Positions 1 through 61,129 of a stretch of DNA of 64,000 nt are shown piece after piece. Under the pieces are notes generated by a model. The model searched no databases and had not been told where the DNA came from. It saw only the letters and a program-made list of their open reading frames with translations. The stretch's first letter is position 1. Every line of letters begins with the position of its first letter. Position numbers and translations under genes: made by a program. Source of the DNA: an uncultured bacterium (GTDB lineage Bacteria; Omnitrophota; Omnitrophia; Omnitrophales; Aquincolibacteriaceae); NCBI GenBank assembly GCA_964562525.1, contig CAZLTL010000009.1, forward strand, positions 11,352-75,351. Direction: 5' to 3'.

Positions 1-3000
1 ACTATTCCGCCGGCTGTCATTTCGACAGTAATATCATTGCTTAAGTTAGCGCTTTTCAGATTCGTGATAATCGCAGCCAGGGTCGTGGTTTTATTTGTGT
101 TTTTATCAAGAAAAGAAGTTCCGAAGTTTTTCAAGTAGAGTTCGACAAGCGGCAATGTGTTAGCAATCGGCCCTGAAGTCAAAGGCGCTGAGGTGGAAAG
201 AAAAATCCCCCCAAAGAGAACTTTCGTGCCTGAGCGGATAGTTGAAAGCGTGAGAGATTGATTGGTGCCGTCACGGTTATTAAACCAGCTGACAGTAAGA
301 GTTCCGTCTGCAGCCTTTAAAATACTTATCCATTTAACGGCTGGTGGTGTTGAGTAAATTTGTGAGCGCAAAGATTCCATTGCGACTAGATCTGACGAAG
401 ATAAATGACCGAAATAATCATCAACGGCTTCAAATGCTTTTTTGGCGTCGAGCATGCCTGTTGCAAGGGACGGCATCGCGGTGGGAGCTTTTGCCGCAGC
501 AAAGATGCGAATGGTTTGGCTTGAGGTCAAAAATATCGTGAATGGCTTTGAATTGAATTGACCGGAGAAAACAGATAATCCGTTGACGCGCTGAAGTGTT
601 ACTCGACTGCCAGAGTTGTTTGTGAGAATGCTTTTAATGTCAGCGGCAAGTCGCGCTGTTTCCTTGTCGATCACCATGTTTTCAAGGTAGAGCTGGGCCT
701 GCTGAGCGCTTATTTCAGTGAGCTGCTCATGCGAGACAACCAGTGTTTTTTGCTGATTTCGCGGATCATTTTGAATTTTGAGCGTTGTGAACTTGCCGTC
801 AATATTGCTGAAAAACTGAATATAAACGGAACCATCGCGATCCATGGAGCTCAAAATGTTGCCGCCGGTTTTTAAAAGTTCGGTTTTAAGCGCAAGCACT
901 TCCGCTTGAATTGTGGCGCCGGCCGCCGGCAGAACGGCGTTTAACAAGGTTTCGGTGCTTTTCCAAAGAGCCAAGGCCGGTAATTTGACATCGAAAACTT
1001 GCATCACATCTGACGGATTGGCACTTGAATTAATTTCGTAGCGTTTTCCGCCGAAAGACAAGATTAACTTAGAAGCATTCGGATCGTAAATTTCGAGTTT
1101 GGCGGTGCTAAGGGCAGTTAGAACATCAATTAAATTTGTTTTGTTTGAAATTTGACCGATGGCATCCCGCAATGCTTTAGCTGCTTGCTGATTAATGTTG
1201 CTTCCGCCGTTGATTCCGTTATACGAGAAATAAAAAGAGTTTGTTGTTTCTTCTATGCTTCCAAGTCCCTGGCCGTCATAATTTACACGGACATAAAAGT
1301 CGATTGTTTTCACTTCCCCGAGTTTGGTTGTTGTGTCAACAATGCTGAATTTATAGTTTCCGTTCAGTTCAAGCGTCTTTGTAATGATAGTTCCCGGAAA
1401 GATTTTTTTCACAGAAGCCTCTAATGGCAAGATGTAACGCAAGTCCGTCTGCTCTTCGATGAATACCGGCGGTGTGCTGCCGCGGGCGTAGCTGACTTCA
1501 TAATCTCGGTTTTTAAGTGTGAAGCTAAAGCTGTTTACCTTGGGGTCATAGGTTTTCAAAATAGAAACTTGAGTGACGGCTTTGATTTTATCTTCGAAAG
1601 AAGTAATGGCTGACAATGTGACGGGAGATTGCCCCGGGGCATCCACACCAAACGAAGCAAAAAGGGCTGCGTTAAAATCCGCAACAGTTCCCGCCGGAAC
1701 CGTGATTCCTTGGAAGTTTGCGGCAAAGCTGCTAGGAACCATTTCAATGTTGCCATTATTCATTTCCATCTTAAAAGTCATCGACGCGAAGTTTTTTGCG
1801 GGAATGGTTTTTAGCAGCGAAGAGATTTTTATATTATAAATTCCTTGAGGTGAAATAGACACAATCTCAACTTTGAGATTTGTATTTGCCAGATGATTGC
1901 GCAGAGTTGTCATAACATAGTTTGTCACGGCTGCTCTATCGGTGATGTCTTCCACGAGCCAATCTTTTTTTAATGCGGAATATTTCACTTCGTATTGGCG
2001 ACCATCTTTTTCATAAGTTAAGAGCGCGGCTGCGTTCGCTGTTCCTGAAGGCGGAATGGAATTGATTTTGGCGTTGAGCAAATGCTGAAAAGCTTGAGAT
2101 GAGCTTCCGGCTGAAAATAAAATTCCAGCATCGCGCAGCATGTCTGAAGCTTGAATCCCCACGCTGATACCATCTTGTCTAAAGAAAACCGGCGCAGGCT
2201 TGGTTTCAAGGTTGGCACCTTTAATTGAAAACTCGATTCGCTGAATAGTGCCGTTTTCAGCCCCGTTTGTTAACCGCTCAATGCGCACGGTGATAATTTC
2301 ACCGGCTTTAGCCGATGCATTGACACGATATGTGCCTTGACCGAATAAGGAATCAACGGAATCTTGTAGTCCAAGAATGTAGTTAGCAGAGGCGCCGATA
2401 TTCGCGCTCTTGTAACTGCCTTGAATTGGAAGGCTGTCTTTTTGAATGCCGACAAAGTCGATGCCCTCACCTTTAAAGTTAATTGTGCGTGTTAAACTTG
2501 TGGTTCCGGTTGTTTTTGCGGAAGCGACTGTTAGTTGTGATAAAGCTAAAACCTCATACAAACCGTGGGGATTAATAACCGAGCTTTCTGCGGCAATCCC
2601 TGCTCCGGAATTGCGAACAAGCCCCGTCTCAAGAGCGGAGCTTAAGGCTTCACGAAGAATAGATACATCTTGTTGTGATGGCGAGGTCAGCGTGCCTTTG
2701 TAGCTTAAGCTCAGCGAGCTCATATCAACACTAAACTTATTATCAGCTGCAGAGTTTAAAGTTACTGAAAGTGAAGTAAGCGTTCCTGCAGTTTGGGCTT
2801 TCGTACTGCTGTAGCTAATTTTAAGTTTTTCAACACCGCTTTCGTTTACGATGTCCAGGGTGTAGTTTGATGGCAACGTAGCGCGCAGCCCATCATAAAG
2901 ACTTTGACGATTTTCATTTTGAGAGGGAAGTGAGGAAGCCATGGCTGAGAGCGGGCTTTCGTTTCGTTCTTCTAAATCACAACCTGATTCCCCGCAGTGA

Positions 3001-3164
3001 TTGGTAACATCCGGGTTACCTGTGCTCTCGGGAGACACTTCGGGCGTTTGCTGATTTTGAGCTTCGATAGTTGTTGCTTGTTGGGCCTCTGCCATGGGAA
3101 GAAATGAAAAAGTAAGTATCAAAACAAGTGTTCCGGCGACCCATTTTTTTAATTGCGCAAGCAT
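1..3164 (-). CDS. Large secreted protein, 3'-truncated by the window edge (at least 1054 aa); modular repeat protein of unknown function
   Basis: My own reverse-complement translation from the ATG at 3164..3162 is open all the way to position 1. Every minus-strand ORF the track lists in this region is in another frame, and the ORF finder omitted this one because it has no stop in the window. An AAGGGG ribosome-binding site lies 5 nt upstream, and an in-frame TAA 4 codons upstream fixes the start. N-terminus MLAQLKKWVAGTLVLILTFSFLPMAEAQQ is a Sec signal peptide. Recurrent motifs KDGRQYEVKYS / KNRDYEVSYA / GGKRYEINSS suggest repeated modules. Confidence 0.6.
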   Translation of the reverse strand, partial: MLAQLKKWVAGTLVLILTFSFLPMAEAQQATTIEAQNQQTPEVSPESTGNPDVTNHCGESGCDLEERNESPLSAMASSLPSQNENRQSLYDGLRATLPSNYTLDIVNESGVEKLKISYSSTKAQTAGTLTSLSVTLNSAADNKFSVDMSSLSLSYKGTLTSPSQQDVSILREALSSALETGLVRNSGAGIAAESSVINPHGLYEVLALSQLTVASAKTTGTTSLTRTINFKGEGIDFVGIQKDSLPIQGSYKSANIGASANYILGLQDSVDSLFGQGTYRVNASAKAGEIITVRIERLTNGAENGTIQRIEFSIKGANLETKPAPVFFRQDGISVGIQASDMLRDAGILFSAGSSSQAFQHLLNAKINSIPPSGTANAAALLTYEKDGRQYEVKYSALKKDWLVEDITDRAAVTNYVMTTLRNHLANTNLKVEIVSISPQGIYNIKISSLLKTIPAKNFASMTFKMEMNNGNIEMVPSSFAANFQGITVPAGTVADFNAALFASFGVDAPGQSPVTLSAITSFEDKIKAVTQVSILKTYDPKVNSFSFTLKNRDYEVSYARGSTPPVFIEEQTDLRYILPLEASVKKIFPGTIITKTLELNGNYKFSIVDTTTKLGEVKTIDFYVRVNYDGQGLGSIEETTNSFYFSYNGINGGSNINQQAAKALRDAIGQISNKTNLIDVLTALSTAKLEIYDPNASKLILSFGGKRYEINSSANPSDVMQVFDVKLPALALWKSTETLLNAVLPAAGATIQAEVLALKTELLKTGGNILSSMDRDGSVYIQFFSNIDGKFTTLKIQNDPRNQQKTLVVSHEQLTEISAQQAQLYLENMVIDKETARLAADIKSILTNNSGSRVTLQRVNGLSVFSGQFNSKPFTIFLTSSQTIRIFAAAKAPTAMPSLATGMLDAKKAFEAVDDYFGHLSSSDLVAMESLRSQIYSTPPAVKWISILKAADGTLTVSWFNNRDGTNQSLTLSTIRSGTKVLFGGIFLSTSAPLTSGPIANTLPLVELYLKNFGTSFLDKNTNKTTTLAAIITNLKSANLSNDITVEMTAGGI

Positions 3165-3255
3165 GAAAGCCCCTTATTTTGTAATTTAATTGTCTTTTTA
3201 AATCTAATGAAAATGTATCCTAACCTATTATCTAAAGCAACCACTTGGATAGCAA

Positions 3256-3272
3256 TGCTATTTTTTGCTATA
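3256..3272 (+). promoter_or_regulatory. Direct-repeat motif TGCTAT-N4-TGCTATA (preceded by AA), candidate operator about 95 bp upstream of the truncated secreted-protein gene
   Basis: Read directly: caaTGCTATttttTGCTATAag. The same architecture recurs at 13190..13206 in the divergent control region of the giant genes. The 10-bp periodicity is typical of winged-helix or response-regulator sites. Confidence 0.3.
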
Positions 3273-3310: not shown

Positions 3311-3360
3311 GTGTATAAAAGGCGAGACCTCCGAAGGCTGTTTTAAGCTTGCCTTCGGAG
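3311..3360 (-). terminator. Rho-independent terminator downstream of the 3237-aa gene
   Basis: Perfect 10-bp stem ctccgaaggc / gccttcggag (3329-3338 / 3351-3360) with a 12-nt loop, followed on the minus strand by cgccttttatac (T-run). Confidence 0.5.
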
Positions 3361-3389
3361 GCGCATCGAAGAGATCGTTGAAACTTTGT

Positions 3390-6300
3390 TTAGGCTTGTT
3401 GGAGACGCTTTCTTCTTGCGTCTTCGTCTTCTTGATCAATATAAATGGGCGTTAAGCTTTCGCGCATTTGTTCCCACATGGTCCAAAAAGCGCCACGGTA
3501 TTCGGCGGTGCGATCCATCAGAAGTGTTTTTACAAAATTCAATTCCGTGGGGTCTTTAACCAGTTCGAGGGTTTGCTTCAATTCGCCCATGTTGCCGTTT
3601 TCATCTGCTGCGTAAAATTTGGCATAATTGTCTTGAAGAACTTTAAAACCAATAACTTTACCGTCTTGGCTATAAAGCTTGTCGGTAATGATATCGGATG
3701 GGCATGGTGTTGTAATGCAATTGACAGCGGTTTTTTCAGTTGTTTTGTAAAGGGTTCCCTCATTGCTGAGCCCTAAAACACTTACGGCTAAGTCTTGCTC
3801 AACTTGACTTAACGCAACCGCACCTTCCGGAAGCTTGTTTGCTATCGCGGACATTAAGTCTTCGCCCTCCGCGATCATTTGACTCATAACTTCACGAGGA
3901 TCGATCGGCATTGCCATGGGTTCCAAAGCGATAGGAGCGAGGACGGGAAATTCCATTTTAAGAGTTTCAAGTTCTTCAGCTGAGGTTGCCGCGCTGATTT
4001 TTTCCTGATAAGTGATAAGGTCGTTGGCCAACATTTGGTGCGCTGCAATTTCTGATTTAAGCGAAGCAAGTGCACCATAATGCAAGAATGATTCAAAGAT
4101 TTCCTTTTCCTGCTCTAATGTGTTGTCCAAGAAAAAGCGCATTTCACTGAGTTTTTCCGCGATGGCATCAATCGCTGGGGTATTGGGCCTGTCGCTATCA
4201 ACTACTTTTTGCATTTCCGTCATCAGCGCTTCAAGCCGGGTTTTCAATGCGTTGATTTCGGCGCCAAATTCTCCGACGCGCTGGTCAGCCAGGCGTTTCA
4301 TTTCTTCGAGGCTTGCAATAAGCCCGGCCAAAAGAGAATCGTTATCAGCTTGTGCGGAATCGATTCTTCCCAGAAGTTCATTGCGAGCCGTTTCAAATTC
4401 GAAAAGCGGGCTTGTGATTATTGTGTCGCTTACCTTGAGTCCCGCTGCTAGCGTCATATTCATGGTGGCTTGCAGCGTTTTTCCGCCTGACGCGGTAAAT
4501 TCAAGCTTCAATGAAAAATTATTTTCACTTGAAGATATGATTTTTATCGACTTAATCACAATTTCAGGTTGGGCTTCAAAATTAATGCCCGCCTTGAGCG
4601 CGGCTTCTTCATAAACAGCCAAAATAGCTTTCGCTGCTTCAGCGCGACCGCCTTGAATTAAGATGCGGAACAAATTCGTATTAATTCGTGTTGCGCCGGC
4701 GAATAAGCTTGAGCTGTCCGGCTTGCTCACAAAGCGAATGACCATGTTGCGTAAATCCTTAAGTGAAGGACCGGGTAGCATGTCATACATAATGTTGTCA
4801 AACACAGAAGGCATAAAGACACCATCGCCGGGATTAAAATCCCCGACATCGCCTGTGGTTAACCCTTTGAGTTTCAAATAATCTTCCGGTGAAGACCAAC
4901 GATCCAGCCCCAGGGCATTCATTTCACCGATTAAGGCGTTAACCAGCTCTGAAACGGGAACGAGCATTTTCTCTCCGACATTACCGCGGAAACTGGTGAT
5001 TTGAACCGAGCGCATCATCAAATTTTCGTAAAAATTAGCCAACCCTTGCATCGCTTGACGCTCAACATCTTTTGCTTTTTGCGGCCCATACACAGCGCTG
5101 AATTCGGTTGGAGCGCTTTCATCGCTTTGGGTGTAGCCATTTTCTTGCAGCCATGTTGCCAGGCGGGTGATCGCTGCGCGAACTGCGGTAACGGTATCAG
5201 CAAATTTTCTATCCATTGCCGGCATATCATCTTGGTTGATGACCGGAGGAATTTGCATGGAGACTTGCATTGCTTGCGCGATGGATTGCTGTGTATAGCT
5301 GAGCTGCATCGCAAAACGAATTTTATCTGTTTTGACCTGCTCGAGCGTTTGGTTCATTGCGCCTGCAAATGCACGCATTTTTTCAATAGGGTCCACACCC
5401 GGCTCGATATAGATCCCGTCAAAAAACAACTCGGGCAATTTTCCCTCGAGATCACGAAGCGCCTCGAGGCTATCCGCATTTTGAAGGCTGTTTTGATAAG
5501 CAATCAAATTTTGAGCGTGGTTATTTCTTCCTGCGGCTTCCATATCAAGAAGATGACGGAAGCTGTGAATGGTATATTGAATTAAAGCGTCGATTTCACC
5601 TTGAACAGTGTTATCCAAATAACTGCGCATTTCTGCTGCTTGAGCCTCGATTTGAAAACGGGTTTCGGTGCGAATGTCATCGCTTTCAAGTGCTTTTTCA
5701 AGGTCAGCGAGCATTCCCTTAAGCTTTTGAATTAATTCTTCAACTGAAGCATTAATTTCTAATTTCTTTGCTTCAAGCAATCTCTCTGCTTCGGCGATGC
5801 GGTTTCCTAGGTCGGCCATAGCCGCTTCATTTTTATTTATTTCATCTTGCGTTTTTTCAAGCATGACCGAACGCAGCGCTTCAAGCTCTTCTTTTACATC
5901 CTGAAGCTTTACGTTCCCCTCATCATTAATTTCAACGTTGAAAAGGCGGCCATCCAGCGTGACGGTTTTTACGGCAGGGTAATCGACTAAAGCGGTCGTT
6001 TGTCCGTAGGAACCGTCTTCTTTTTGACCCCATTTTGAGAAAACCAGACCATAGCCTAAATATTTAGGCGTATAAGGAGAAGGCTTCATAACCGACTCGG
6101 AGCCATCGGTTGTTGGAGAATAAACGACTAACTCCATTGTTTGCTCATAAGCTTCGCCAAAGGTAATTGAGTAATCACCGAAATTTTGATTATTACGAAT
6201 CAAAATATCATCGGATCTCTGCTCTGTTCCCGCAAGCAAATCAACCTGACCGACAACAATATAGCCGGTTTGATAATCCGCCATTTGCACAAAGCGGGGA

Positions 6301-9300
6301 GTGAGACCGTTTTCACCGCGCGCATAAGTGACTGAAAATTTAAGACCTTCCCATTTATTTGCGTCGCCGGAAAAATGGTATTCCGTTTTGATGCGAGCAT
6401 GCTGATCAATCAGTTCATGATTGCCTGAAGAGTTGATGGCATTAAAAACGTCAGCAGTAATTGTTGCGGAAGCATATTGCACGATATGCGGCGGAACGGA
6501 CACCCAAGTATCGGGATGACAAGGTGCTTTATAGCAGCCTTGGTCAGTTTGCCAATAACCTGCGGTTACATAGTTTGTGTAGTTTCCGGAGTAAGTAGTT
6601 TCACCATTAACAGTTGAGCTTGAAACGGAAATGATTTGTGAGTAATTGCCTTCCGCATCATAAGCATAAAATGTTTTTGTGGTTGATTCGCTTGCCGGGT
6701 AATAGGGGCGCCAAATGGGACGATAATATTCCACATCAGGTTTGTAAGCTCGGTCGATTTCTTCATTTGTGATCGCCGGCTTTTCAATAGGTCTAAGATT
6801 ATCATATTGCTCGACTTCAATCGGGCGCTTGTAGTAATAATCATGATTTGCTGTATGAGAAATGATGGAAGCAATTTTTTGTTGTCCGTTTACAAGTGTG
6901 TAGGTGTACGATGTTTTCCCTGAGCTATAACCGTTCTTATAGTAAGAAGTGAACCACGACTCAGCCTCGATCATTCCGTTTTCGTTATAGTAAGTTGTCG
7001 AGCTTGAGGCATGATTCCAATAGCTGCGCTCTTCCTTTCTTTCAAAAGAGATAACGCTATTAAGGCTTTCCGAGAGCTGTAAGGTCCATGTCTTTTCGCC
7101 TTCATAGTAGTAGGGATACCACATCTCGACCATTTGGCTTGAAAGCGCTTGCTTATCTTCATCCGAAATTACCGGAAAAGACGAATCAACCGGCTCAACG
7201 GCTTTTTCTTCCGTGTGAAGAATGTAGTCGTATTCTTTGTAATCCAGTTTATTTTTTATGCTGAGGTTGATTTGTTTGGTGTCCGGGTCGAATGTGCCCG
7301 AATATTGTGTTCCATACCAAGTCACTGTCGCTGTGCCGTCAAGCGCGACCGAGACCTTCAAGTTATTTTGGCCGCCATCCGTTGAAGCCGGAAGCACAAT
7401 TTCAAACGGCTTTTCAATCATTTGTTTAAGCTCAATCACGCCGTCTTTATTCAATGAAATTTCATAAAGAACGCCGTCAAGCGTAACGCGGCTTTCTTTC
7501 GGGAAAGCGGCAAAAACACTTTTACCGGTACTTGCATTTTGGAAATAAATCCCAACGGTTGAACCATGAATGCCCCAAGGTGTGAACCAGTTGGCATAAT
7601 AATTTTTTCCGTTGACGCTTACTTTGGGTTGATTGTATTTGATCAAAATATCATCACCGCTTCCCATCGGAGAATCAGGTGTGCCCACAATGGCATAAGC
7701 TGTGTATTTCCCACCAGTGAAAGAATCTTGCACTAGTGGCTTTTGATCCCAATTAGCCGAACCATCGTTTGAGTATGTGAGGCGTGAGTCAAACTGATTG
7801 GAATTTTCCGGATAGTTAGATATAGATTTATAAGCCGCGATTTGCAATGCGGTTTCCATGGTGAGGTCGGCCGTCACCTTGGCGAAATCTTCTTCGCTCA
7901 TCTCGCGCGTGGTAAAAGCAGTTGTTGTGCGGCTTCCGTCGCTGTTTGTAACCGAGCTTTCAAACCAAAAATAGTATTCAGTTGTTTCGACCCAAACCGT
8001 GCTTGGGGGAGTAAGACCCATAAAAATATCTCGTCCGGCTGTAATGGTTATGTCCGCGCCGTTTGAATCTTTTCGAAAGAAGTAGCGCGATTCGTTTGTC
8101 AGTTTTCCTTCGGAATCGTGAATGGTCCAAAGCGTTTCCGATTTCACTTGTGTGTCATCGATGTAATTGTGAACGTAGGTGTAGCGGTCGCCCCAGCTGT
8201 AAGTCGTTTCTTCTTTAACCAGACGGCCCAAATGGTCTTGGACAGTTGTTTTGGTTTCACTTTCAGAAACATAAATAGAAATGATTTGTTTTGTGTTGCC
8301 TTGAATTCCGCGCCAAGTAGTGACGGTGGTTTGCTCGTCGGGCTTCAAAATTGTTTTTGTGCCTAGCAGATTTCCATTGGCATCAAAATAAGTCGCTACA
8401 GATTTGTCTTCATTTTCTGTTTTATAAGCGGCTTTTTTCTCGAAGAGCGTTTCAGCCGTTGTATTTTCTTCTGCTGAAACATCAAGCTTTTTCACGGCTT
8501 CTTCAAGAGTGACGCCCCCGTTGTTTGTCATCTTAATGTTGTATTTAATCCCGTTCAGCTCAACTTGAGCTTGTTTGGGGTATTCGACAAAAGTATTTTT
8601 GCCCATGTCGTAAATCACAACACCAAAGGGCTGAAGGCCTGTTTCTCCATTAATAACCGGAAAGCTCCAAGAAATAATTGCGTTGCGGTCTTCTAAGCGG
8701 AGATTGTTTGGCGTGACATTAAGTTCGATGTCATCACCTGTGCCCGGATTGCTATCGGCATTACCCACAACAAGGAAATAGCGACTTGTTTGAAGGTTCT
8801 CAATGACAGAGCGATAAAGAGGCGTTTCGCTCCACGAGCCGTCTTCTTTGCGAAAAAAATGGTCAGTGATTAATTTACCGGCAACTTCAGAGCCTTTTGA
8901 GAGGGCCGCAGTTGTTTTGATAAATTCTTCCAGCGAAGTAGCTGCATTTAGATTTGCAAGAAGGGGGTGGTTGGCGCGGACTCCGAACCCTGTGTATCCA
9001 GAGGCGTTCTTTCCATCCGCTGTAAAAAGATGGACGACAATGATCGATGAAATCAAGTTGATTTCTACGCGCAACTTATCACCATTTTGCTCAGTTCTTT
9101 TAATGGTTATGTTTTCAAGAATGAGCTTGCCATCACTTTGTTTTTCAATCATATGCTCTTTGACCATGTCCGACGGCAGGAAATACTGAGAGCGCTTTTC
9201 AGTTCTTAATACGGGGGTCTCTACCGTAACGATTTTGTTTAGAATGTTCCAGTTGCCGTCATAGGAAACATGAGAGATTTCTTTTCGTGCAACCGTTCCA

Positions 9301-12300
9301 TCCTGGGTATAGTCAGTGGCTTCGGAGTAACTTTCCTGGTTTGGATGATATGTTGTCAAAGTCTTTGAGAGCTCTTTGCCGGAAGCGTCGGCAAGAGTTT
9401 GAAGCTCAGAATCAAGCTCATATTCTGTGCCGTTCGGGCGGATCGATTGAACCCATTTCACAGAAAGCAAAAAGTCACTTGTGAGATCAAATTGACGATA
9501 TGTTTCTGTTTTTGTATTTATTCCATTGACTACTTCGTAGGTAAATGCGCTTTCTTGTTCGTAGGTTAGAGTTCCGTTCGCAGCAAAATCACTTAAAATT
9601 TGACGGCTGTATTCTGTTGATGTTGCATCGAGATAAGTTGTGATCTGCTTGGAAGTGATGCCGTTTGGAATTTTGTATTCATAGTATGTTTCGCGCCCAG
9701 CTGAATCTTTCAATGTAGTAAGCGTATAGTTGTTACCTGTGACCACGGTCATTGTTTGCTTCGTGATGCCAGCAGCATCTACCCAAGACCCAAATTCTTT
9801 CGTGTAAGAGCCCATTACTTCAAAATTCTTATTGAAGAAGTAATAAGTGTGAGTTGGCTCGACATCGGGACACGCCCCAGCCCCAGAGCAGTCAGGTGAT
9901 CTGCGTAATAGCTGATAAGCTGGCATTTCCCCAAAAATATGATCTGCGATTCCGCTGAAGGTAATTTCAGTTTGAAATTGGACCTGCGAACCGTCGGCGT
10001 TTTTCCAAACGATTGAGTTTCGTTGAATATCTTGTACGCGGCGGATACCAATTACGTTGTTATTCTCATCAAAATAAGATGTCTCCGTCCAATTCTCACC
10101 GCCGTCCATAAGGTCAGAGCTGTGACTCCCCGTAATAACTGCGTAATTGGCTTGTCTTCCAAAAATAGCATGGATTGTCAGGTTTTCGCCTGCGGAAATA
10201 TCAAGCCGGACATCTTTTTTCAATGGGGCAACAATAACCCGACCATCTTCCGCGCGATAAGCCTTGTAGTTGTTCTCGCTGACTGAAAAATAAACCGCGC
10301 CATTTTCGACTTTTACAACATTGATGGACATCATTTGCTGGAAAACAGAGGCTTCTCCGACAACGTTATTGATAGCAATCATTTTCATCGGGCAAATTTG
10401 ACCTTCAGGGCACACATTCATAGCGGCAAATAGTAATTCAGCATCTTTGCCCGAAACCATGGCACCGTTGTAGTCAACATTCATGGATCCGGAAATTCGG
10501 GTTCCGTCCGCGTTGAGTCTAAAGGACATGGAGCCGAATGAACCCGGCGCGGGCGCAACCATAGTACACATCATGTCTTCGGGGCATTGGAAGCTGCGGT
10601 CAATCGAAACTAAATAAGTGCCATCTTCTTGAAGTGAAGCATTAATTCTTGTGTTGTCGTTTCCGAGCTGGTCTCGAATGGTTTGAATATAACTTGCGAT
10701 AGCCGGAGGTAATGAACCATTATCATTTTGTTTCTCAAGTACAACCTGTCCGCTTTCATCACGGAAGGCTTTGTAACTATTTTCACCTCTTGAAAAATAT
10801 ATCGCTCCAGCTTCGACTCGAGTGACAGAAGTTTTTGTCATTTCAACCAGCGTTTCCATGTCGGTGATGAATCGTGCTGAAATCATTTTGCCGTTATCAA
10901 CCGTACTTTCTTTGATTAAAGCTTGGCGCAATCCTTCAAAGAGCAATGTTGCATCGTTTTTTACTTTGTCCCCATAGAAGCTTACTCCGATAGATTCGGG
11001 TAATACGTTCCCATTTTCATCAACAGCGAAGCTCATCGATTGAAAGCCGGATGTGGGTTGCATGAGCCATTCTTTCGAATCAGTTACGCGGATAGAAAAA
11101 AGACCATTTTCTACTGTAATGGAAACAGTCAAGCCGTCGCCGAAAGCGGCTTGGTAGGCTGCCACTGCAGGCGGCAATGTAACCTCGTCCAGCGAAATTT
11201 TTTCTCCGTTGGGTCCGAACCATTCTTGCCGGCTTCCCCAATAGTTCAACGCGTAACCAATCATTTTTTTATCGTCATCAAAGTATTGAATTGTGTCAGG
11301 ACGCATGACTTGAGCGCAGGCTTCGCCTGTGCAGTTCGCTCCCGAAATGGTTTTTTGATAAACAGGCGTTTGTTTGAAAGCTTTTGTTGCATCTTCGAGG
11401 AATTCCGTTGCGTTAACAAGTTTGAGATCTCTTGCTTGCCCCCAGCGATCAAGGTGCGCGATGGGATTTTTATCATCTTCGGGGACGTACACAAGCGTAT
11501 AACTTTCGATGGTTTGCCCGCCGGTTGCTTGGCTTACATTGGATACACGGCCCAAATAACTGCCGGAAGCCGAGTAATAAAAATGATCTGTGGTGTCGGA
11601 GCCGGTGCATTTGGGCGGGATTGATTTTGTGCAAACAATGCCGATGTCCGAGTCTTCTGAGCGGACATAGGTCGTTGTTTCTCCCAAGTAGTCCGTTGCG
11701 ATATGGTCGGCTCCGGGGTCAATGGCTCTCAAAGGTTCGGATGAAGTGTATGAGCCGTCCTCGTTCTTTTTGACTGCATAAAAATATTCCCCGCGCTGAA
11801 TCACAAACTGTGCATCATTGAGGGTCCCGCTTACAAATTTAACTTCTACATTGTCGGAAGTTGTCCAAACCGTTACTTCCGGGGTGGATGAGTTGTATTC
11901 CATCTTTCCTAAATAGGACCCATCCGCTGAGGAGTAAGTTGTTCTTGTGTCATAGCAAGGGTCTTGATCGCAAACAAGGTTTGTCTCAACTCTTTTATAA
12001 ATAACAGGGTGAGTTTCTTTGTTGATATCCAAAATCACGGTGGTTTGCTCTGATTCGGTTCCTTCTACTTGAGTCTGAGGCTGTTGTGTTTCCGGAACGG
12101 TGAAGCTGGTTGACGTTGTGCCTGAAAAGGATACGTAGTTGTAATAATCGTTTGAAGCGATTTCAACATAGTAAGTCTGGCCTTGTGACAGCCCGCTGAT
12201 GTCGATGTCTTGCGAGCAAGAGCCATAGCTGTAGCAATTGCTCAAAGAAGTTTCGCTAATCTGGTTGTAGGACGAATCTTTCAAGCGCAGAACTAGGTTA

Positions 12301-13103
12301 GGGCTTGTACTGCTGTAGTTATAGAAGCTGACATTGGCTGTCGTCGGATTTGATTCCGAAGTTAAAACATTGAGCGATTCGATGTTGACATAGTTGTAGG
12401 AAACGGGGCTGGTGTAGCTGTAATAAGATGGATCAACATAGGTTGTGTCGTAATAATAGGAATAGCTTGTGTCCGGAGCCGTGCCAAAGCTTGTGGATGT
12501 TGTCCCTGAAACGGAGGTGTAACCGTTTGTACTGGGCGCAAGAATGTTTACTGTGTAAGAAGAGTTTGGGCTAAGTCCGCTAATGGATGTTGAGCAATAT
12601 CCATAGCAGTAGAGCGATGTTTGAGTTTGAACATTGTTATATACATCTCTTACTTCAAGTGTGATGTCTGAGTAATTGCCTGACAAGTTAACATTGACCG
12701 TAGCGTCGGTTGATCCCGCGGAAACATCCATTGACGATACATAGATATTTGTAATGGGCTCAACGACCTGGGTTTGACTTGTTGTTTCTGTTGTTGACGC
12801 CAAGCTTGTGTCTTCCTGTGTAGTTTCATCGGTACCATATTGATTTTCAGCACCACTTTGATCTACAGCGCTGACGACCTGGATAGAGCTTTCCCAAGAT
12901 TCTCCGGTTTGTATTTGCTCTTGGCCTTCCATATGTTCGGCCAAGTCGGGATTTTGTGGTTTATCAATAGACACACCTTGGCTGTCTAAAGCGGGGTCAG
13001 TTGCAATCATGTCAGCCGCAAAGCTGAATTGGGTTGGCGAGAAAGCGAATGTGAATGCCACAGCAAGCGCTGTGATCTTCTTTGCGGCTGTAATCAATTG
13101 CAT
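3390..13103 (-). CDS. Giant secreted protein (3237 aa): signal peptide, Tyr/Ser/Thr-rich tandem beta-sandwich-like repeats, duplicated ~170-aa units, YD/RHS-like repeat stretches, three copies of a ~90-aa 'GDDIL...VTLDG..Y.I' module, and a C-terminal ~800-aa coiled coil
   Basis: ORF-track ORF. N-terminus MQLITAAKKITALAVAFTFAFSPTQFSFAADM is a signal peptide. Tandem repeats '...TSLY/SNCYSYG.CS..ISGLS....Y.V.I......Y.SVSGTTSTSF' occur at aa ~115-330. The pair 'GSFGSMSFRLNADG...' / 'SGFQSMSFAVDENG...' and the pair 'NGAVYFSVSENNYKAYRAEDGRV' / 'AGAIYFSRGENSYKAFRDESGQV' are duplicated. YD-like strings include ETYYEYKIPNG, TTYHPNQESYSEATDYTQDG and HLGRLVKEETTYSWGDRYTYVHNY. Heptad-rich text begins at aa ~2400 (EELEALRSVMLEKTQDEINKNEAAMADLGNRIAEAERLLEAKKLE...). 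No TM segment after the signal peptide. Confidence 0.8.
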   Translation of the reverse strand: MQLITAAKKITALAVAFTFAFSPTQFSFAADMIATDPALDSQGVSIDKPQNPDLAEHMEGQEQIQTGESWESSIQVVSAVDQSGAENQYGTDETTQEDTSLASTTETTSQTQVVEPITNIYVSSMDVSAGSTDATVNVNLSGNYSDITLEVRDVYNNVQTQTSLYCYGYCSTSISGLSPNSSYTVNILAPSTNGYTSVSGTTSTSFGTAPDTSYSYYYDTTYVDPSYYSYTSPVSYNYVNIESLNVLTSESNPTTANVSFYNYSSTSPNLVLRLKDSSYNQISETSLSNCYSYGSCSQDIDISGLSQGQTYYVEIASNDYYNYVSFSGTTSTSFTVPETQQPQTQVEGTESEQTTVILDINKETHPVIYKRVETNLVCDQDPCYDTRTTYSSADGSYLGKMEYNSSTPEVTVWTTSDNVEVKFVSGTLNDAQFVIQRGEYFYAVKKNEDGSYTSSEPLRAIDPGADHIATDYLGETTTYVRSEDSDIGIVCTKSIPPKCTGSDTTDHFYYSASGSYLGRVSNVSQATGGQTIESYTLVYVPEDDKNPIAHLDRWGQARDLKLVNATEFLEDATKAFKQTPVYQKTISGANCTGEACAQVMRPDTIQYFDDDKKMIGYALNYWGSRQEWFGPNGEKISLDEVTLPPAVAAYQAAFGDGLTVSITVENGLFSIRVTDSKEWLMQPTSGFQSMSFAVDENGNVLPESIGVSFYGDKVKNDATLLFEGLRQALIKESTVDNGKMISARFITDMETLVEMTKTSVTRVEAGAIYFSRGENSYKAFRDESGQVVLEKQNDNGSLPPAIASYIQTIRDQLGNDNTRINASLQEDGTYLVSIDRSFQCPEDMMCTMVAPAPGSFGSMSFRLNADGTRISGSMNVDYNGAMVSGKDAELLFAAMNVCPEGQICPMKMIAINNVVGEASVFQQMMSINVVKVENGAVYFSVSENNYKAYRAEDGRVIVAPLKKDVRLDISAGENLTIHAIFGRQANYAVITGSHSSDLMDGGENWTETSYFDENNNVIGIRRVQDIQRNSIVWKNADGSQVQFQTEITFSGIADHIFGEMPAYQLLRRSPDCSGAGACPDVEPTHTYYFFNKNFEVMGSYTKEFGSWVDAAGITKQTMTVVTGNNYTLTTLKDSAGRETYYEYKIPNGITSKQITTYLDATSTEYSRQILSDFAANGTLTYEQESAFTYEVVNGINTKTETYRQFDLTSDFLLSVKWVQSIRPNGTEYELDSELQTLADASGKELSKTLTTYHPNQESYSEATDYTQDGTVARKEISHVSYDGNWNILNKIVTVETPVLRTEKRSQYFLPSDMVKEHMIEKQSDGKLILENITIKRTEQNGDKLRVEINLISSIIVVHLFTADGKNASGYTGFGVRANHPLLANLNAATSLEEFIKTTAALSKGSEVAGKLITDHFFRKEDGSWSETPLYRSVIENLQTSRYFLVVGNADSNPGTGDDIELNVTPNNLRLEDRNAIISWSFPVINGETGLQPFGVVIYDMGKNTFVEYPKQAQVELNGIKYNIKMTNNGGVTLEEAVKKLDVSAEENTTAETLFEKKAAYKTENEDKSVATYFDANGNLLGTKTILKPDEQTTVTTWRGIQGNTKQIISIYVSESETKTTVQDHLGRLVKEETTYSWGDRYTYVHNYIDDTQVKSETLWTIHDSEGKLTNESRYFFRKDSNGADITITAGRDIFMGLTPPSTVWVETTEYYFWFESSVTNSDGSRTTTAFTTREMSEEDFAKVTADLTMETALQIAAYKSISNYPENSNQFDSRLTYSNDGSANWDQKPLVQDSFTGGKYTAYAIVGTPDSPMGSGDDILIKYNQPKVSVNGKNYYANWFTPWGIHGSTVGIYFQNASTGKSVFAAFPKESRVTLDGVLYEISLNKDGVIELKQMIEKPFEIVLPASTDGGQNNLKVSVALDGTATVTWYGTQYSGTFDPDTKQINLSIKNKLDYKEYDYILHTEEKAVEPVDSSFPVISDEDKQALSSQMVEMWYPYYYEGEKTWTLQLSESLNSVISFERKEERSYWNHASSSTTYYNENGMIEAESWFTSYYKNGYSSGKTSYTYTLVNGQQKIASIISHTANHDYYYKRPIEVEQYDNLRPIEKPAITNEEIDRAYKPDVEYYRPIWRPYYPASESTTKTFYAYDAEGNYSQIISVSSSTVNGETTYSGNYTNYVTAGYWQTDQGCYKAPCHPDTWVSVPPHIVQYASATITADVFNAINSSGNHELIDQHARIKTEYHFSGDANKWEGLKFSVTYARGENGLTPRFVQMADYQTGYIVVGQVDLLAGTEQRSDDILIRNNQNFGDYSITFGEAYEQTMELVVYSPTTDGSESVMKPSPYTPKYLGYGLVFSKWGQKEDGSYGQTTALVDYPAVKTVTLDGRLFNVEINDEGNVKLQDVKEELEALRSVMLEKTQDEINKNEAAMADLGNRIAEAERLLEAKKLEINASVEELIQKLKGMLADLEKALESDDIRTETRFQIEAQAAEMRSYLDNTVQGEIDALIQYTIHSFRHLLDMEAAGRNNHAQNLIAYQNSLQNADSLEALRDLEGKLPELFFDGIYIEPGVDPIEKMRAFAGAMNQTLEQVKTDKIRFAMQLSYTQQSIAQAMQVSMQIPPVINQDDMPAMDRKFADTVTAVRAAITRLATWLQENGYTQSDESAPTEFSAVYGPQKAKDVERQAMQGLANFYENLMMRSVQITSFRGNVGEKMLVPVSELVNALIGEMNALGLDRWSSPEDYLKLKGLTTGDVGDFNPGDGVFMPSVFDNIMYDMLPGPSLKDLRNMVIRFVSKPDSSSLFAGATRINTNLFRILIQGGRAEAAKAILAVYEEAALKAGINFEAQPEIVIKSIKIISSSENNFSLKLEFTASGGKTLQATMNMTLAAGLKVSDTIITSPLFEFETARNELLGRIDSAQADNDSLLAGLIASLEEMKRLADQRVGEFGAEINALKTRLEALMTEMQKVVDSDRPNTPAIDAIAEKLSEMRFFLDNTLEQEKEIFESFLHYGALASLKSEIAAHQMLANDLITYQEKISAATSAEELETLKMEFPVLAPIALEPMAMPIDPREVMSQMIAEGEDLMSAIANKLPEGAVALSQVEQDLAVSVLGLSNEGTLYKTTEKTAVNCITTPCPSDIITDKLYSQDGKVIGFKVLQDNYAKFYAADENGNMGELKQTLELVKDPTELNFVKTLLMDRTAEYRGAFWTMWEQMRESLTPIYIDQEDEDARRKRLQQA

Positions 13104-13189
13104 AGAATGACTCCCTTAATAATTAGTCTTATTTTATCTATTGGGAAAGTAACTTGTTGATAGAAGGAATTCAATGGTGATAATCAGAA

Positions 13190-13206
13190 TGCTATATATT
13201 GCTATA
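13190..13206 (+). promoter_or_regulatory. Second copy of the TGCTAT-N4-TGCTATA direct repeat, in the AT-rich divergent control region between the two giant genes
   Basis: Read directly: gaaTGCTATatatTGCTATAttg. It lies ~90 bp upstream of the 3237-aa gene start (13103, minus strand) and ~150 bp upstream of the 6901-aa gene start (13353). Orientation and spacing match the copy at 3256..3272. Confidence 0.3.
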
Positions 13207-13352
13207 TTGTTAATTAAAATTAACTGTGTATATTAATCTTGTGATAGCAATCGAGAGCATTATTAATCACTTATTAAATGTTGTTATTTACGGTTGCAAT
13301 GCGGGGAAGAGATGGTAAGTTTTAAAAAACTTTCACCAAATATCTGAAAACA

Positions 13353-42147: not shown

Positions 42148-43215
42148 ATGTTTGTAATTACTAAGAAAACTCCTCCGCCAGCCAACCTGTCAAAAGACGA
42201 ACATGATTTTGTTATTTCTTGTCGTGAAATTTTGGAGTTTGTTTTAAAGGTTTATGAAAGTACAGGCAAGTATCCAGAAGAACTTAATTTAGAGTTTGAG
42301 TTTGAAGAAAAGTTTTCAGTAGAAGACTTTAGAAAACTAAGAGACCTTGATATGTTAAAGGCTAATTATTCGCTTCAGCCGACCAGAACCGAATTAACAT
42401 TTTTTGGTTTTTTGTATTGCAGCAGTGAAGAAGCAAAAAAGTATCAAAAATCTATGGAGGATGCATTTAATTTTTTAATGAAGACTCTTCGTGAGGAAAG
42501 GAAAGAGGTAGATCTTCAGCTAGACGATTTTTGCCGATTGGTGAACCCTAAGCTGGGAGTAACATTTCGACAGTTTTGGGAAAGGCTGCTAGCTTTTTTT
42601 AACAGTGAACCATTTGTAATTTTCACCATAAGCTGGAGTGGATCAAGTTCCGATGCGGGCAAGGTTTATTACTCTGTTTGTCCAAGAAAAAGGATACGTG
42701 AGTTTAAAGACTTTAGTCAATATCTTCAAAGGTGCTATGAATTAATTAAAGCCTCTCGAGGGATGGCAGAGCCTTCTGCGTTGATAGGCGACACTTTCAA
42801 TCAAGAGAAGGCGCCCGCCAAGCTTTATGTAAATGAGAAAAGAATTTTAGAGTTAAAAAATATAAAAAGCACAAAGTTTGATCTCTCAAAAACCGCTCAA
42901 ATTTTAGAAGAGATAAACAGATCATTTAAGTATCAAAATTACTTGTCAATTATTTTACTTTTAAGAATGTTGATTGATCATATTCCGCCCATTTTTGAGA
43001 TGGAGACTTTTAAGGAAGTGGCAAATGCTCAGCCGATTTCAGTTAAAAAAACATTTCTTAGATTTGATGAGCATGTTAGAAATGTCGCAGATCACTATAT
43101 TCATCAAAAAATCAGGAAAAAAGAACACCTTCCAAATGATACGCAGATTGATTTTCGAAGTGAGCTTGATTTTTTGTTAGGAGAAGTTATTCGAACATTG
43201 CATGAAAAATCTTAG
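42148..43215 (+). CDS. Hypothetical protein (355 aa), AT-rich orphan gene
   Basis: Clean ORF, visibly more AT-rich than its neighbours, no motif I recognise. Flanked upstream by family-B palindromic repeats and downstream by a cagtcg-type tandem repeat. Confidence 0.55.
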   Translation: MFVITKKTPPPANLSKDEHDFVISCREILEFVLKVYESTGKYPEELNLEFEFEEKFSVEDFRKLRDLDMLKANYSLQPTRTELTFFGFLYCSSEEAKKYQKSMEDAFNFLMKTLREERKEVDLQLDDFCRLVNPKLGVTFRQFWERLLAFFNSEPFVIFTISWSGSSSDAGKVYYSVCPRKRIREFKDFSQYLQRCYELIKASRGMAEPSALIGDTFNQEKAPAKLYVNEKRILELKNIKSTKFDLSKTAQILEEINRSFKYQNYLSIILLLRMLIDHIPPIFEMETFKEVANAQPISVKKTFLRFDEHVRNVADHYIHQKIRKKEHLPNDTQIDFRSELDFLLGEVIRTLHEKS

Positions 43216-43611: not shown

Positions 43612-43720
43612 AGTTCAGAGTTCAGAACCATAGATTAAAGCTCAAGACGGTTCGAACATCTGATTGCCTTTGATTTATGGTTTTGACTTCTGATTTTTGA
43701 ATTTTGAACTGTTTTTGGGT
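43612..43720. repeat. Repeat family C: imperfect palindrome built from 'agttcaaaattcaaaaatcagaagtcaaaaccata'-like arms
   Basis: 43617-43640 agttcagaaccatagat pairs with 43668-43715 ttatggttttgacttctgatttttgaattttgaact. The reverse complement of the latter closely matches 49385-49420. Confidence 0.4.
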
Positions 43721-47240: not shown

Positions 47241-47361
47241 CGTTTATTGAAAAAGGTCATTTGCGGCGTTGCAAACATCGCTTCCTTGTGCGGCGTAGGT
47301 TCTCACTACGCCTCCGCGGGCGCTTGTTTGCGCCTGGCATCTGAACCTTTTTGAATAAACG
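47241..47361 (+). repeat. Repeat family A, copy 1 (~120 nt; candidate structured RNA / 3'-UTR element), starting 2 nt after the ggt stop
   Basis: cgtttattgaaaaaggtcatttgcggcgttgcaaacatcgCTTCCTTGTGCGGCGTAGgttctcaCTACGCCTCCGCGGGCGcttgtttgcgcctggcatctgaacctttttgaataaacg. Three nested stems: outer cgtttattgaaaaagg/cctttttgaataaacg, middle gcaaaca/tgtttgc, inner ggcgtag/ctacgcc. Confidence 0.6.
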
Positions 47362-48381: not shown

Positions 48382-48500
48382 ACCATTGAAAAAGAATCAT
48401 CTGCGGCGTTGCAAGCGGCTCTTCCTTGTGCGGCGTAGGTTTTTACTACGCCTCCGCGGGCGTTTGCTTGCGCCTGGCATCTGAATCTTTTTGAATGGTT
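48382..48500 (+). repeat. Repeat family A, copy 2, starting immediately after the TAA of the ArsC-like gene
   Basis: aaccattgaaaaagaatcatctgcggcgttgcaagcggctCTTCCTTGTGCGGCGTAGgtttttaCTACGCCTCCGCGGGCGtttgcttgcgcctggcatctgaatctttttgaatggtt. The outer stem differs from copy 1 but still pairs (aaccattgaaaaag/ctttttgaatggtt); the middle stem is gcaagc/gcttgc. Confidence 0.6.
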
Positions 48501-49382: not shown

Positions 49383-49507
49383 TTGTGTAAAATACGCACC
49401 CGTATCCATTAAATCAAAATTCAAAGATCAGAAATCAAGACCATAGCCGAAAGATCAGCGCTGTTCGTATATCCGATAAGTTTTTACCTATGGTTCCGAG
49501 CTTTGAT
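49383..49507. repeat. Repeat family C, second locus (imperfect palindrome around 'accatag')
   Basis: aaatcaaaattcaaagatcagaaatcaagaccatagcc ... gtttttacctatggttccgagctttgattttt. The arms are mutually complementary and match the 43612-43720 element. Confidence 0.4.
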
Positions 49508-54983: not shown

Positions 54984-55104
54984 GATCAAAAGATAAGGGC
55001 TCGTCTACTGCGTCACAGCCTTCACTTCCTCCTGCGGCGTATTGCCGCATACGCCTCGTCGGGCGTTTGTCTGTTCCTTGTATCCAAACCCTTCTTTTTT
55101 GATC
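54984..55104 (+). repeat. Repeat family A, copy 4 (most divergent), starting immediately after the thyA TAA
   Basis: gatcaaaagataagggctcgtctactgcgtcacagccttcaCTTCCTCCTGCGGCGTATtgccgcATACGCCTCGTCGGGCGtttgtctgttccttgtatccaaacccttcttttttgatc. The inner stem is changed compensatorily (ggcgtat/atacgcc) and the outer stem is gatcaaaag.aagggtttgg/ccaaacccttcttttttgatc. Confidence 0.5.
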
Positions 55105-60239: not shown

Positions 60240-60363
60240 CAAGCCGCTGAAAAGGGCCTGTCTGCGTCGTTGCGGACTTCACTTCCTTGTGCGGCGTATT
60301 GCTTCATACGCCTCCGCGGGCATTCGTCCGCGCCTAGCATCCCAGCCCTTTTGAGCCGCTTGC
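60239..60363 (+). repeat. Repeat family A, copy 3, overlapping the TAG of the permease gene
   Basis: gcaagccgctgaaaagggcctgtctgcgtcgttgcggacttcaCTTCCTTGTGCGGCGTATtgcttcATACGCCTCCGCGGGCattcgtccgcgcctagcatcccagcccttttgagccgcttgc. All three stems covary: outer gcaagccgctgaaaaggg/cccttttgagccgcttgc, middle gcggac/gtccgc, inner ggcgtat/atacgcc. Confidence 0.6.
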
Positions 60364-60388: not shown

Positions 60389-61129
60389 GTGTTTATGGAA
60401 ATAAAATCTAATCAAGGTGAAAATTTTATAGTGGCCTATCTTGACATAATGGGCTACCGAGATTTAATTAAAACAACAGAGCCTGAAAAAATAAAAGAAG
60501 CCATAGAAGGAACTCTTAAATCTCCCGAGTCTATTAGTGGTGATGCAGCTGATTTAGCAAAGTCCATAGAACTGCAGCTCCTGAGTGATTCGATAATTCT
60601 TGCTTTAAATTTAGACAGTTTAGAGCAGTACCAAATTGGATTTAAGATAAATCAATTTTTGGCGATATGCGCAGCTTTGTATGTACTTTTATTTTGTCAG
60701 CTGAAAAAACCAATAAGAGGTGCGGTCGCAATAGGGCAATACTATATGGAGCAGCTTCAAACTCGCTTTGCCAATCACTTTTTGTTCAGTAAGGCGCTTG
60801 TTGAAGCGTATGAGCTTGAAAATAAACACGCTGATGTTCCCAGAATATTGTTAACCCAAAAGCTGGGCGCTCTTTTTACCGGCGAACCTCACTCTAAAAA
60901 TAAAATCAAAAAAGATTTTGATGGCTTATGGATAATTGACCCATACGAATTTGTTCGGTTTTGTGATGGTGTTAACAAATCACGCGATGTGGAAAATCTT
61001 TATATTAAAAATTTAAAGGAAGTATTAAATTCGGATATTGAATTAAAGGTAAAACGTAAGTACGAGTATATGCGAATGTGTCATAATCAGAAAATGATGG
61101 CGAATGGTCTAAATGAATTCTTGATTTGA
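60389..61129 (+). CDS. Hypothetical protein (246 aa), AT-rich orphan gene, possible divergent nucleotidyltransferase/cyclase-palm-like fold
   Basis: 'NFIVAYLDIMGYRDLI' resembles the first metal-binding motif of class-III cyclase / GGDEF / mCpol palm domains (hh.hDI.G[FY]..L), and 'LLSDSIILAL' sits about 50 aa later where the second acidic motif would be. The resemblance is weak. Visibly AT-rich, and flanked upstream by repeat A3. Confidence 0.5.
   Translation: MFMEIKSNQGENFIVAYLDIMGYRDLIKTTEPEKIKEAIEGTLKSPESISGDAADLAKSIELQLLSDSIILALNLDSLEQYQIGFKINQFLAICAALYVLLFCQLKKPIRGAVAIGQYYMEQLQTRFANHFLFSKALVEAYELENKHADVPRILLTQKLGALFTGEPHSKNKIKKDFDGLWIIDPYEFVRFCDGVNKSRDVENLYIKNLKEVLNSDIELKVKRKYEYMRMCHNQKMMANGLNEFLI

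Follow-up and report, generated by a model that had tools for sequence, protein, structure and literature searches.

To our knowledge, nothing is known about the control of the very large secreted proteins of Omnitrophota, for which roles in predation or host attachment have been proposed, and we know of no regulon described in the Omnitrophota lineage that is the host of this locus. In the 64-kb stretch of DNA analysed here (the window), the same pair of short direct repeats stands upstream of two genes for secreted proteins. Are the repeats a regulatory element at all, and if so, what kind of protein would read them and with what effect? The following features are considered first.

1..3164, minus strand: gene 1, secreted protein without family assignment; 1054 aa inside the window, ATG at 3164
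3254..3272, minus strand: site R1, gene strand TATAGCAAAAAATAGCATT; half-sites ATAGCA at 3271..3266 and 3261..3256; exact pattern match
3328..3361, minus strand: hairpin following the stop codon of gene 2; stem of 11 bp, then a U-run
3390..13103, minus strand: gene 2, 3237-aa secreted protein without family assignment; ATG at 13103
13188..13206, minus strand: site R2, gene strand TATAGCAATATATAGCATT; inside the divergent region with the 6901-aa gene; exact pattern match
13353-34058, plus strand: giant gene, 6901 aa, divergent from gene 2; begins with a signal peptide

The repeat pair and the genes behind it

Gene 1 extends past the window edge, and comparison with its 95% homolog P0001 gives a full length of ~1085 aa. 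Its signal peptide, read from the sequence, is MLAQLKKWVAGTLVLILTFSFLPMAEA, and the N-termini of the gene 1 and gene 2 proteins both read as Sec signal peptides. The two proteins are barely similar to each other, and searches of both found no Pfam families, no PDB sequence matches and no recognisable domains. Between gene 2 and the giant gene is a divergent region of 249 bp, which holds the second copy of the repeats, as originally described. The 6901-aa protein contains two PPDK_N domains, a PEP-utilizers mobile domain, a GT5 starch-synthase domain and a GT1 domain. The name "megaenzyme" given to it in the preliminary description does not hold in the sense of a classical assembly-line enzyme; with its signal peptide and its PPDK_N, GT5 and GT1 domains, the product is a multidomain giant secreted protein. 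This domain mix is unusual for an exported protein, and a GNHD motif near residue 800 resembles a metallophosphatase motif. Elsewhere in the window, the ORFs at 60389-61129 (246 aa) and 42148-43215 (355 aa) match no Pfam family, even with a threshold of E = 0.01.

The hairpin behind gene 2 folds with -25.2 kcal/mol (z = -3.9 against shuffles), and its stem is retained in two related loci, L009 and L010 (listed below). It is likely a terminator separating gene 2 from gene 1, and for this reason gene 1 needs a promoter of its own.

Within the window, the pattern TGCTAT-N4-TGCTAT matches exactly twice, each time on the plus strand (3256-3271 and 13190-13205), and its expected count is 0.00 in 100 dinucleotide-preserving shuffles. 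The longer 19-mer AATGCTAT-N4-TGCTATA fits without mismatch at 3254-3272 and 13188-13206, in the same orientation as first reported, and nowhere else in the window. The lone hexamer TGCTAT is not enriched (19 found, 23.5 expected); the signal resides in the paired arrangement and its position, not in the hexamer. Read on the gene strand, the pair is ATAGCAA-N3-ATAGCATT, and the repeat unit is ATAGCAW followed by a 3-nt, mostly A/T spacer, giving a period of 10 bp. The nearest edge of the site is 90 nt from the ATG of gene 1 and 85 nt from that of gene 2, slightly less than the 90-95 bp first given; the observation itself essentially stands. The site is not palindromic. The palindrome ATAGCAaTGCTAT at 3249-3261 was considered as part of it and rejected, its inverted half-site being lost in the 95% relative L009.

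In a look-elsewhere test, each 200-nt upstream region of the window was compared with every other. For most pairs the best 19-nt match was 12-15, and the pair 3254-3272 / 13188-13206 scored 17/19, so that together with the shuffles the test bears out the earlier statement that such a recurrence is unlikely by chance. No more than two other pairs exceeded 16, both on other repeated intergenic sequences of the window. The window holds several dispersed intergenic repeats unrelated to the site, namely a 107-nt direct pair of 88% identity at 47250-47356 / 48390-48496, a 102-nt direct pair of 75% at 54992-55093 / 60249-60350, and a 32-nt inverted pair of 91% at 43676-43707 / 49414-49445; these may be elements of the REP or MITE type. 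When the window and ~174 kb of related loci were scanned with a PWM, no strong site appeared beyond those described here, which leaves two promoters only, and a scan of a viral collection with the full layout pattern (given below) gave no match. No Rfam family matched at or above its gathering score anywhere in the window, and the site corresponds to no known structured RNA.

Conservation in related Omnitrophota loci

The gene family is rare. Protein searches gave two hits for gene 1, two for gene 2 and one for the N-terminus of the giant gene; a scan of genome contigs gave six loci, only two of them (L001 and L002) orthologous, and a metagenome scan added two contigs only, both of the L002 species. 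Five informative loci were recovered, and the related loci are all in Candidatus Omnitrophota assemblies. The four loci compared with the window differ in what they retain and in their distance from it:

L009 (GCA_020049755.1): gene 1 at 95% identity
L010 (SRR22388275): gene 1 at 57% identity; fully syntenic over the giant gene, gene 2 and gene 1
L002 (UBA2337; same species as L007 and L008): gene 2 at 53% and the giant-gene N-terminus at 60% identity
L001: gene 2 at 29% and the giant-gene N-terminus at 42% identity; the most distant ortholog

The motif was found in all orthologous promoters recovered (L009, both promoters of L010, L002/L008 and, in degenerate form, L001), and the preliminary description thus withstands the check for absence from such promoters. 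The gene-strand sequences of the sites are as follows:

Window R1 and L009 R1: TATAGCAAAAAATAGCATT
L010 R1: AATAGCAATATATAGCATT; third repeat ATAGCT 10 bp upstream
Window R2: TATAGCAATATATAGCATT
L002 R2: TATAGCAATTAATAGCATT; third repeat ATAGCA 9 bp upstream
L010 R2: TATAGCAACTTATAGCATT
L001 R2: TATAGCGACATCTATCATT

The half-sites ATAGCAA / ATAGCAT are in direct, head-to-tail orientation in all six strong instances, and the centre-to-centre spacing is 10 bp in every instance. The direct repeats of 10-bp periodicity noted at the outset therefore hold throughout, and two promoters have a third in-phase repeat. In L001 the proximal repeat is degenerate (CTATCA) and the same spacing is kept; this instance scores 14.9 bits, no better than the best background match of its own locus, and the exact spacing alone is what identifies it.

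With the proximal repeat as anchor, seven promoters were aligned (R1 and R2 of the window, R1 of L009, R1 and R2 of L010, R2 of L002 and R2 of L001), which represent four or five lineages of Omnitrophota. The alignment is gap-free over ~110 nt and has a fixed layout of repeat pair, 13 nt, TTGnnT, 17 nt, (G.)TACwTT and a conserved block around the predicted transcription start. Its invariant or near-invariant columns (n = 7) are tATAGCaA...aTAgCATT, TTG..T, G.TAC.TT and cA.tAGaT..AA.AAG.C. When R1 is compared with R2 within one genome, identity is 0.84-0.89 in the site, 83% in the -10 hexamer and 67% in the -35 hexamer, against 0.00-0.15 in the 13-nt spacer and 0.24-0.29 in the 17-nt spacer; the start-region block, at 0.56-0.64, likewise stands above the 0.00-0.29 of the spacers. 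The same holds between orthologs. R1 of the window and R1 of L010, whose proteins are 57% identical, agree at 16 of 19 positions in the site (0.84) and at 0.31 in the sequence upstream. For L009, at 95% protein identity, the site is identical (19/19), the 13-nt spacer has dropped to 0.54, and the DNA directly upstream of the site has been replaced (identity 0.14 to the window).

This is a clear phylogenetic footprint, in which the repeats and the -35/-10-like hexamers are conserved and the spacers have diverged to random levels. It indicates that purifying selection has acted on the half-sites and kept their distance from the core promoter, as judged from aligned sequences. With the shuffles, the look-elsewhere test and conservation across genomes, a chance origin is ruled out. 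The claim that the motif is a non-random cis-element common to both secreted-gene promoters is upheld by the shuffles and by its conservation across lineages, and the repeats are very probably a conserved cis-regulatory element of the two promoters.

Could the element be conserved in layout and still have no function tied to a specific protein? It might be homology left over from promoter duplication or gene conversion, or an A/T tract or bend of the UP-element kind, touched by RNA polymerase alone. R1 and R2 share their whole layout, suggesting common descent; the absence of gene 1 from the L002 lineage shows a locus with a history of gain or loss, and the site is located where UP elements act. 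Indeed, because the same layout extends over ~110 nt, a single promoter was probably the ancestor of both R1 and R2, which would then not be independent inventions. Yet spacers at 0-29% identity against repeats at 84-89% exclude recent copying. The three bases between the repeats vary (AAA, TAT, TTA, CTT) and the repeat bases do not, which argues for selection on the half-sites instead. Each half-site also has an invariant G and C (six strong instances, four lineages), unlike UP elements, which are A/T tracts without G/C positions. We therefore regard an element without a specific binding protein as highly improbable.

Two further features of these loci were observed. The UBA2337 lineage lacks both gene 1 and its promoter (L002 1-1343 compared with L010 9789-13678), so gene 1 was gained or lost together with its promoter; in L002, Polyketide_cyc2 and Exo_endo_phos genes directly follow gene 2, and in L009 and L010 they follow gene 1. 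In addition, a block of ~40 nt just upstream of R2 (13207-13245, compared with 2236-2281 of L010) is 100% identical between the window and L010 and has diverged in L002. This contrasts with the 57% identity of the gene 1 proteins of the window and L010, and marks an extra constraint in the divergent region.

Position of the site on the predicted promoters

Promoter elements were assigned by conservation together with resemblance to consensus, and are as follows:

3235..3240, minus strand: predicted -35 of gene 1, TTGCTT, 13 nt downstream of R1; TTG..T invariant in seven promoters
3212..3217, minus strand: predicted -10 of gene 1, TACATT, 17 nt after the -35, with a conserved G at -14; TAC.TT invariant in seven
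3192..3211 (R1) and ~13126-13145 (R2), minus strand: block cAwtAGaT..AA.AAG.C around or just after the predicted start; conserved in seven promoters
13169..13174, minus strand: predicted -35 of gene 2, TTGAAT, 13 nt from R2, as in R1
13146..13151, minus strand: predicted -10 of gene 2, TACTTT; identical in L002, L010 and L001
13243..13261, plus strand: weak third copy of the repeats, GATAGCAATCGAGAGCATT, in opposite orientation, with 2 mismatches
13294-13321, plus strand: giant-gene promoter TTG(C/A)AA-16-TA(A/C)(G/C)TT, sigma-70-like; conserved in four lineages, spacer diverged

We infer that TTGnnT-17-TACwTT is the sigma-70-type core promoter of gene 1 and gene 2, because it is the only hexamer pair conserved in 7/7 promoters, because the promoter of the giant gene has the same style, and because distant Omnitrophota loci show a perfect TTGACA-17-(G)T-TAnnTT. 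Inspection found no GG-N10-GC, and a sigma-54 -24/-12 promoter was rejected, as was an ECF-type promoter, no shared ECF-like -35 being visible. A scan tool chose other pairs, namely TTGCTA-17-GATAAT at R1, TCAACA-18-TAAAAT at R2 and, on the plus strand, TTGATA-16-GATAAT; these were rejected, neither their position nor their sequence being conserved between R1 and R2 or among orthologs.

On the predicted core promoter, the site would span about -67 to -49 and be centred at about -58.5. The gap of 13 nt from site to TTGnnT, followed by 17 nt to TACwTT, is invariant in all seven promoters, and the site is thus held upstream of the predicted -35 at a fixed helical phase, as for a class I activator site. 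The -35 hexamers are weak (TTGCTT, TTGAAT, TTGTAT, TTGCAT, TTGATT), whereas repeat-free promoters of distant homologs show a perfect TTGACA-17-TAnnTT, a difference consistent with dependence on an activator.

The preliminary description had called the site an operator. A repressor bound there could hold both secreted-protein genes off by blocking upstream contacts of the polymerase or by looping, and the second conserved block, at the predicted start of 7/7 promoters, shares ATAG with the site and could be a looping partner. If the tool-predicted promoters were real, in particular TTGCTA-17-GATAAT at R1, the R1 site would abut the -35. But the TTGCTA hexamer has not been kept even in L009, the 95% relative, and R2 has no equivalent of the TTGCTA-17-GATAAT pair at that position; this non-conserved pair is the only one that would touch the site. 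Relative to the conserved promoter, the site (about -67 to -49) stays clear of both hexamers and of the start, with 13 bp between it and the downstream -35, so that the term operator does not fit, and the weak -35 hexamers suit activation. Repression from this site is accordingly unlikely in our judgement. Since the site ends 13 bp upstream of the -35-like hexamer, a class I activator position fits better than an operator, and the balance tips slightly towards an activator site. The start-region block cAwtAGaT..AA.AAG.C could in its own right be a second operator or a leader element.

The motif had also been proposed to link three giant genes into one regulon. This is supported for gene 1 and gene 2 but not for the 6901-aa gene, which has its own promoter at 13294-13321, ~90 bp beyond R2 and reading away from it; R2 is at about -140 to -122 relative to the predicted start of the giant gene, a position not equivalent to that in the other two. 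The third copy at 13243-13261 was considered as a site for the giant gene and rejected: it scores 12.9 bits, against ~30 for real sites, is not conserved in L010 or L002, and is probably non-functional by these measures. Two other features accompany this promoter. A perfect 16-bp palindrome, AAGTTTTAAAAAACTT (13317-13332), overlaps the giant-gene -10 and predicted start, is identical in L002 and L010, and may be a separate operator or leader feature. An A/T-rich direct repeat, TTATTAA-N4-TTATTAA (13262-13283), with an 11-bp period at about -67 to -45 of the giant-gene promoter, is largely conserved in L002 and L010 and may be a UP element or the site of another regulator.

The candidate regulator and known systems

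Sequence comparison makes it quite likely that the repeats are a functional protein-binding site shared by both promoters. In the mechanism we propose, the two direct repeats, three in some relatives, would be the transcription-factor binding site of two weak sigma-70-type promoters. Bound to the repeats as a head-to-tail dimer, along a single face of the helix, the protein would activate in a class I-like manner by contacting RNA polymerase, and gene 1 and gene 2 would be switched on together. Taken as a whole, we consider it fairly probable that the repeats are a fixed-position activator site of both secreted-gene promoters.

Which protein would bind? A winged-helix response regulator of the OmpR/PhoB type is the best single guess from the geometry of the site, because the half-sites are near-identical and head-to-tail, with a 10-bp period and an A/T spacer. 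Direct repeats of 6-7 bp are present, and their 10-bp spacing falls within the 10-11 bp of about one helical turn, with the third repeat at 10 bp in L010 and at 9 bp in L002. Most OmpR/PhoB-family regulators bind direct repeats (PMC6868441). The regulators encoded in the window itself are a MarR protein adjacent to an efflux pump, an ECF sigma factor accompanied by an NrsF anti-sigma factor, and an Rrf2 protein. Pfam scans of the window (ORFs of at least 150 aa and the 149-aa MarR) found no Response_reg or Trans_reg_C domain, and neither domain occurs among the called genes of L009 and L010. Two-component genes, whose presence nearby is common but not defining for OmpR/PhoB sites, do not flank the locus in the window, L010, L002 or L009. 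By analogy, then, assignment to the OmpR/PhoB type is tentative, one possibility among several.

The same two successive major grooves might instead be read by another class of regulator, such as an AraC/XylS-type monomer with two HTH motifs, a LytTR protein, or an oligomer of the ribbon-helix-helix or MraZ-like kind. A protein family cannot be told from site geometry alone, the missing two-component neighbours are in keeping with such a reader, and the optional third repeats would suit oligomeric binders. Near-identical 7-mer half-sites, spaced 10 bp centre to centre with an A/T spacer, speak against this. AraC-type monomers usually read two different subsites, which counts against an AraC-type reading, and LytTR proteins typically bind repeats of 9 bp separated by 12 bp, which counts against a LytTR one. 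We judge a regulator of another class to be rather unlikely, and retain the OmpR/PhoB type as the working guess.

In kind, the element is most likely an ordinary one, a tandem-repeat activator site. The half-site ATAGCAW is not known to match any named box, and a literature search found no ATAGCA direct-repeat box and nothing relevant on Omnitrophota promoters. The conserved site can serve as a search pattern for co-regulated genes in complete genomes and as bait to identify the regulator, and the layout gives worked core-promoter examples for Omnitrophota, TTGnnn-16/17-G(T)TAnnTT. In a wider reading that we hold to be doubtful, the repeats would be the cis-element of a lineage-restricted switch for a secreted "attack" locus, beside an Archaeovorin-like giant gene, in Omnitrophota that are putative predators or parasites. 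If this were true, they would offer a first point of entry to the regulation of such loci in an uncultured phylum, and the regulator would become findable together with its signal, which might be contact with a host or prey.

Archaeovorins are giant multidomain secreted proteins of Omnitrophota, with GT5 (glycogen-synthase-like), GT1 and PPDK_N among their listed domains; the paper that describes them reports no promoter or regulatory motif (bioRxiv 10.1101/2023.11.21.568195). The 6901-aa gene product resembles them in its GT5, GT1 and PPDK_N domains and in its host phylum. Unlike Archaeovorins, the site-carrying genes 1 and 2 encode no recognisable domains, and the giant gene uses a separate promoter.

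The sites of the OmpR/PhoB family offer a closer comparison for the repeats themselves, and include the F and C boxes of OmpR, the GTAAA-N5-GTAAA box of CpxR and the pho boxes. They are bound by winged-helix response regulators, usually in a phosphorylation-dependent way. As in R1 and R2, they consist of at least two direct half-sites, each 6-7 bp long, which lie on the same face of the helix and have a period of 10-11 bp and an A/T-rich spacer; they lie upstream of or adjoin a weak -35, and extra repeats extend the array upstream. R1 and R2 differ from these examples in having no two-component genes nearby and in their host, which belongs to an uncultured lineage of Omnitrophota. In class I activator-dependent sigma-70 promoters, an activator near -60 is contacted by the C-terminal domain of the polymerase alpha subunit. 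The position of R1 and R2, unlike that of such sites, is counted from predicted hexamers, and activation and polymerase contact are what we infer for them; with a centre at about -58.5, a fixed spacing to the -35 and a -35 that is weak, the two promoters resemble this class.
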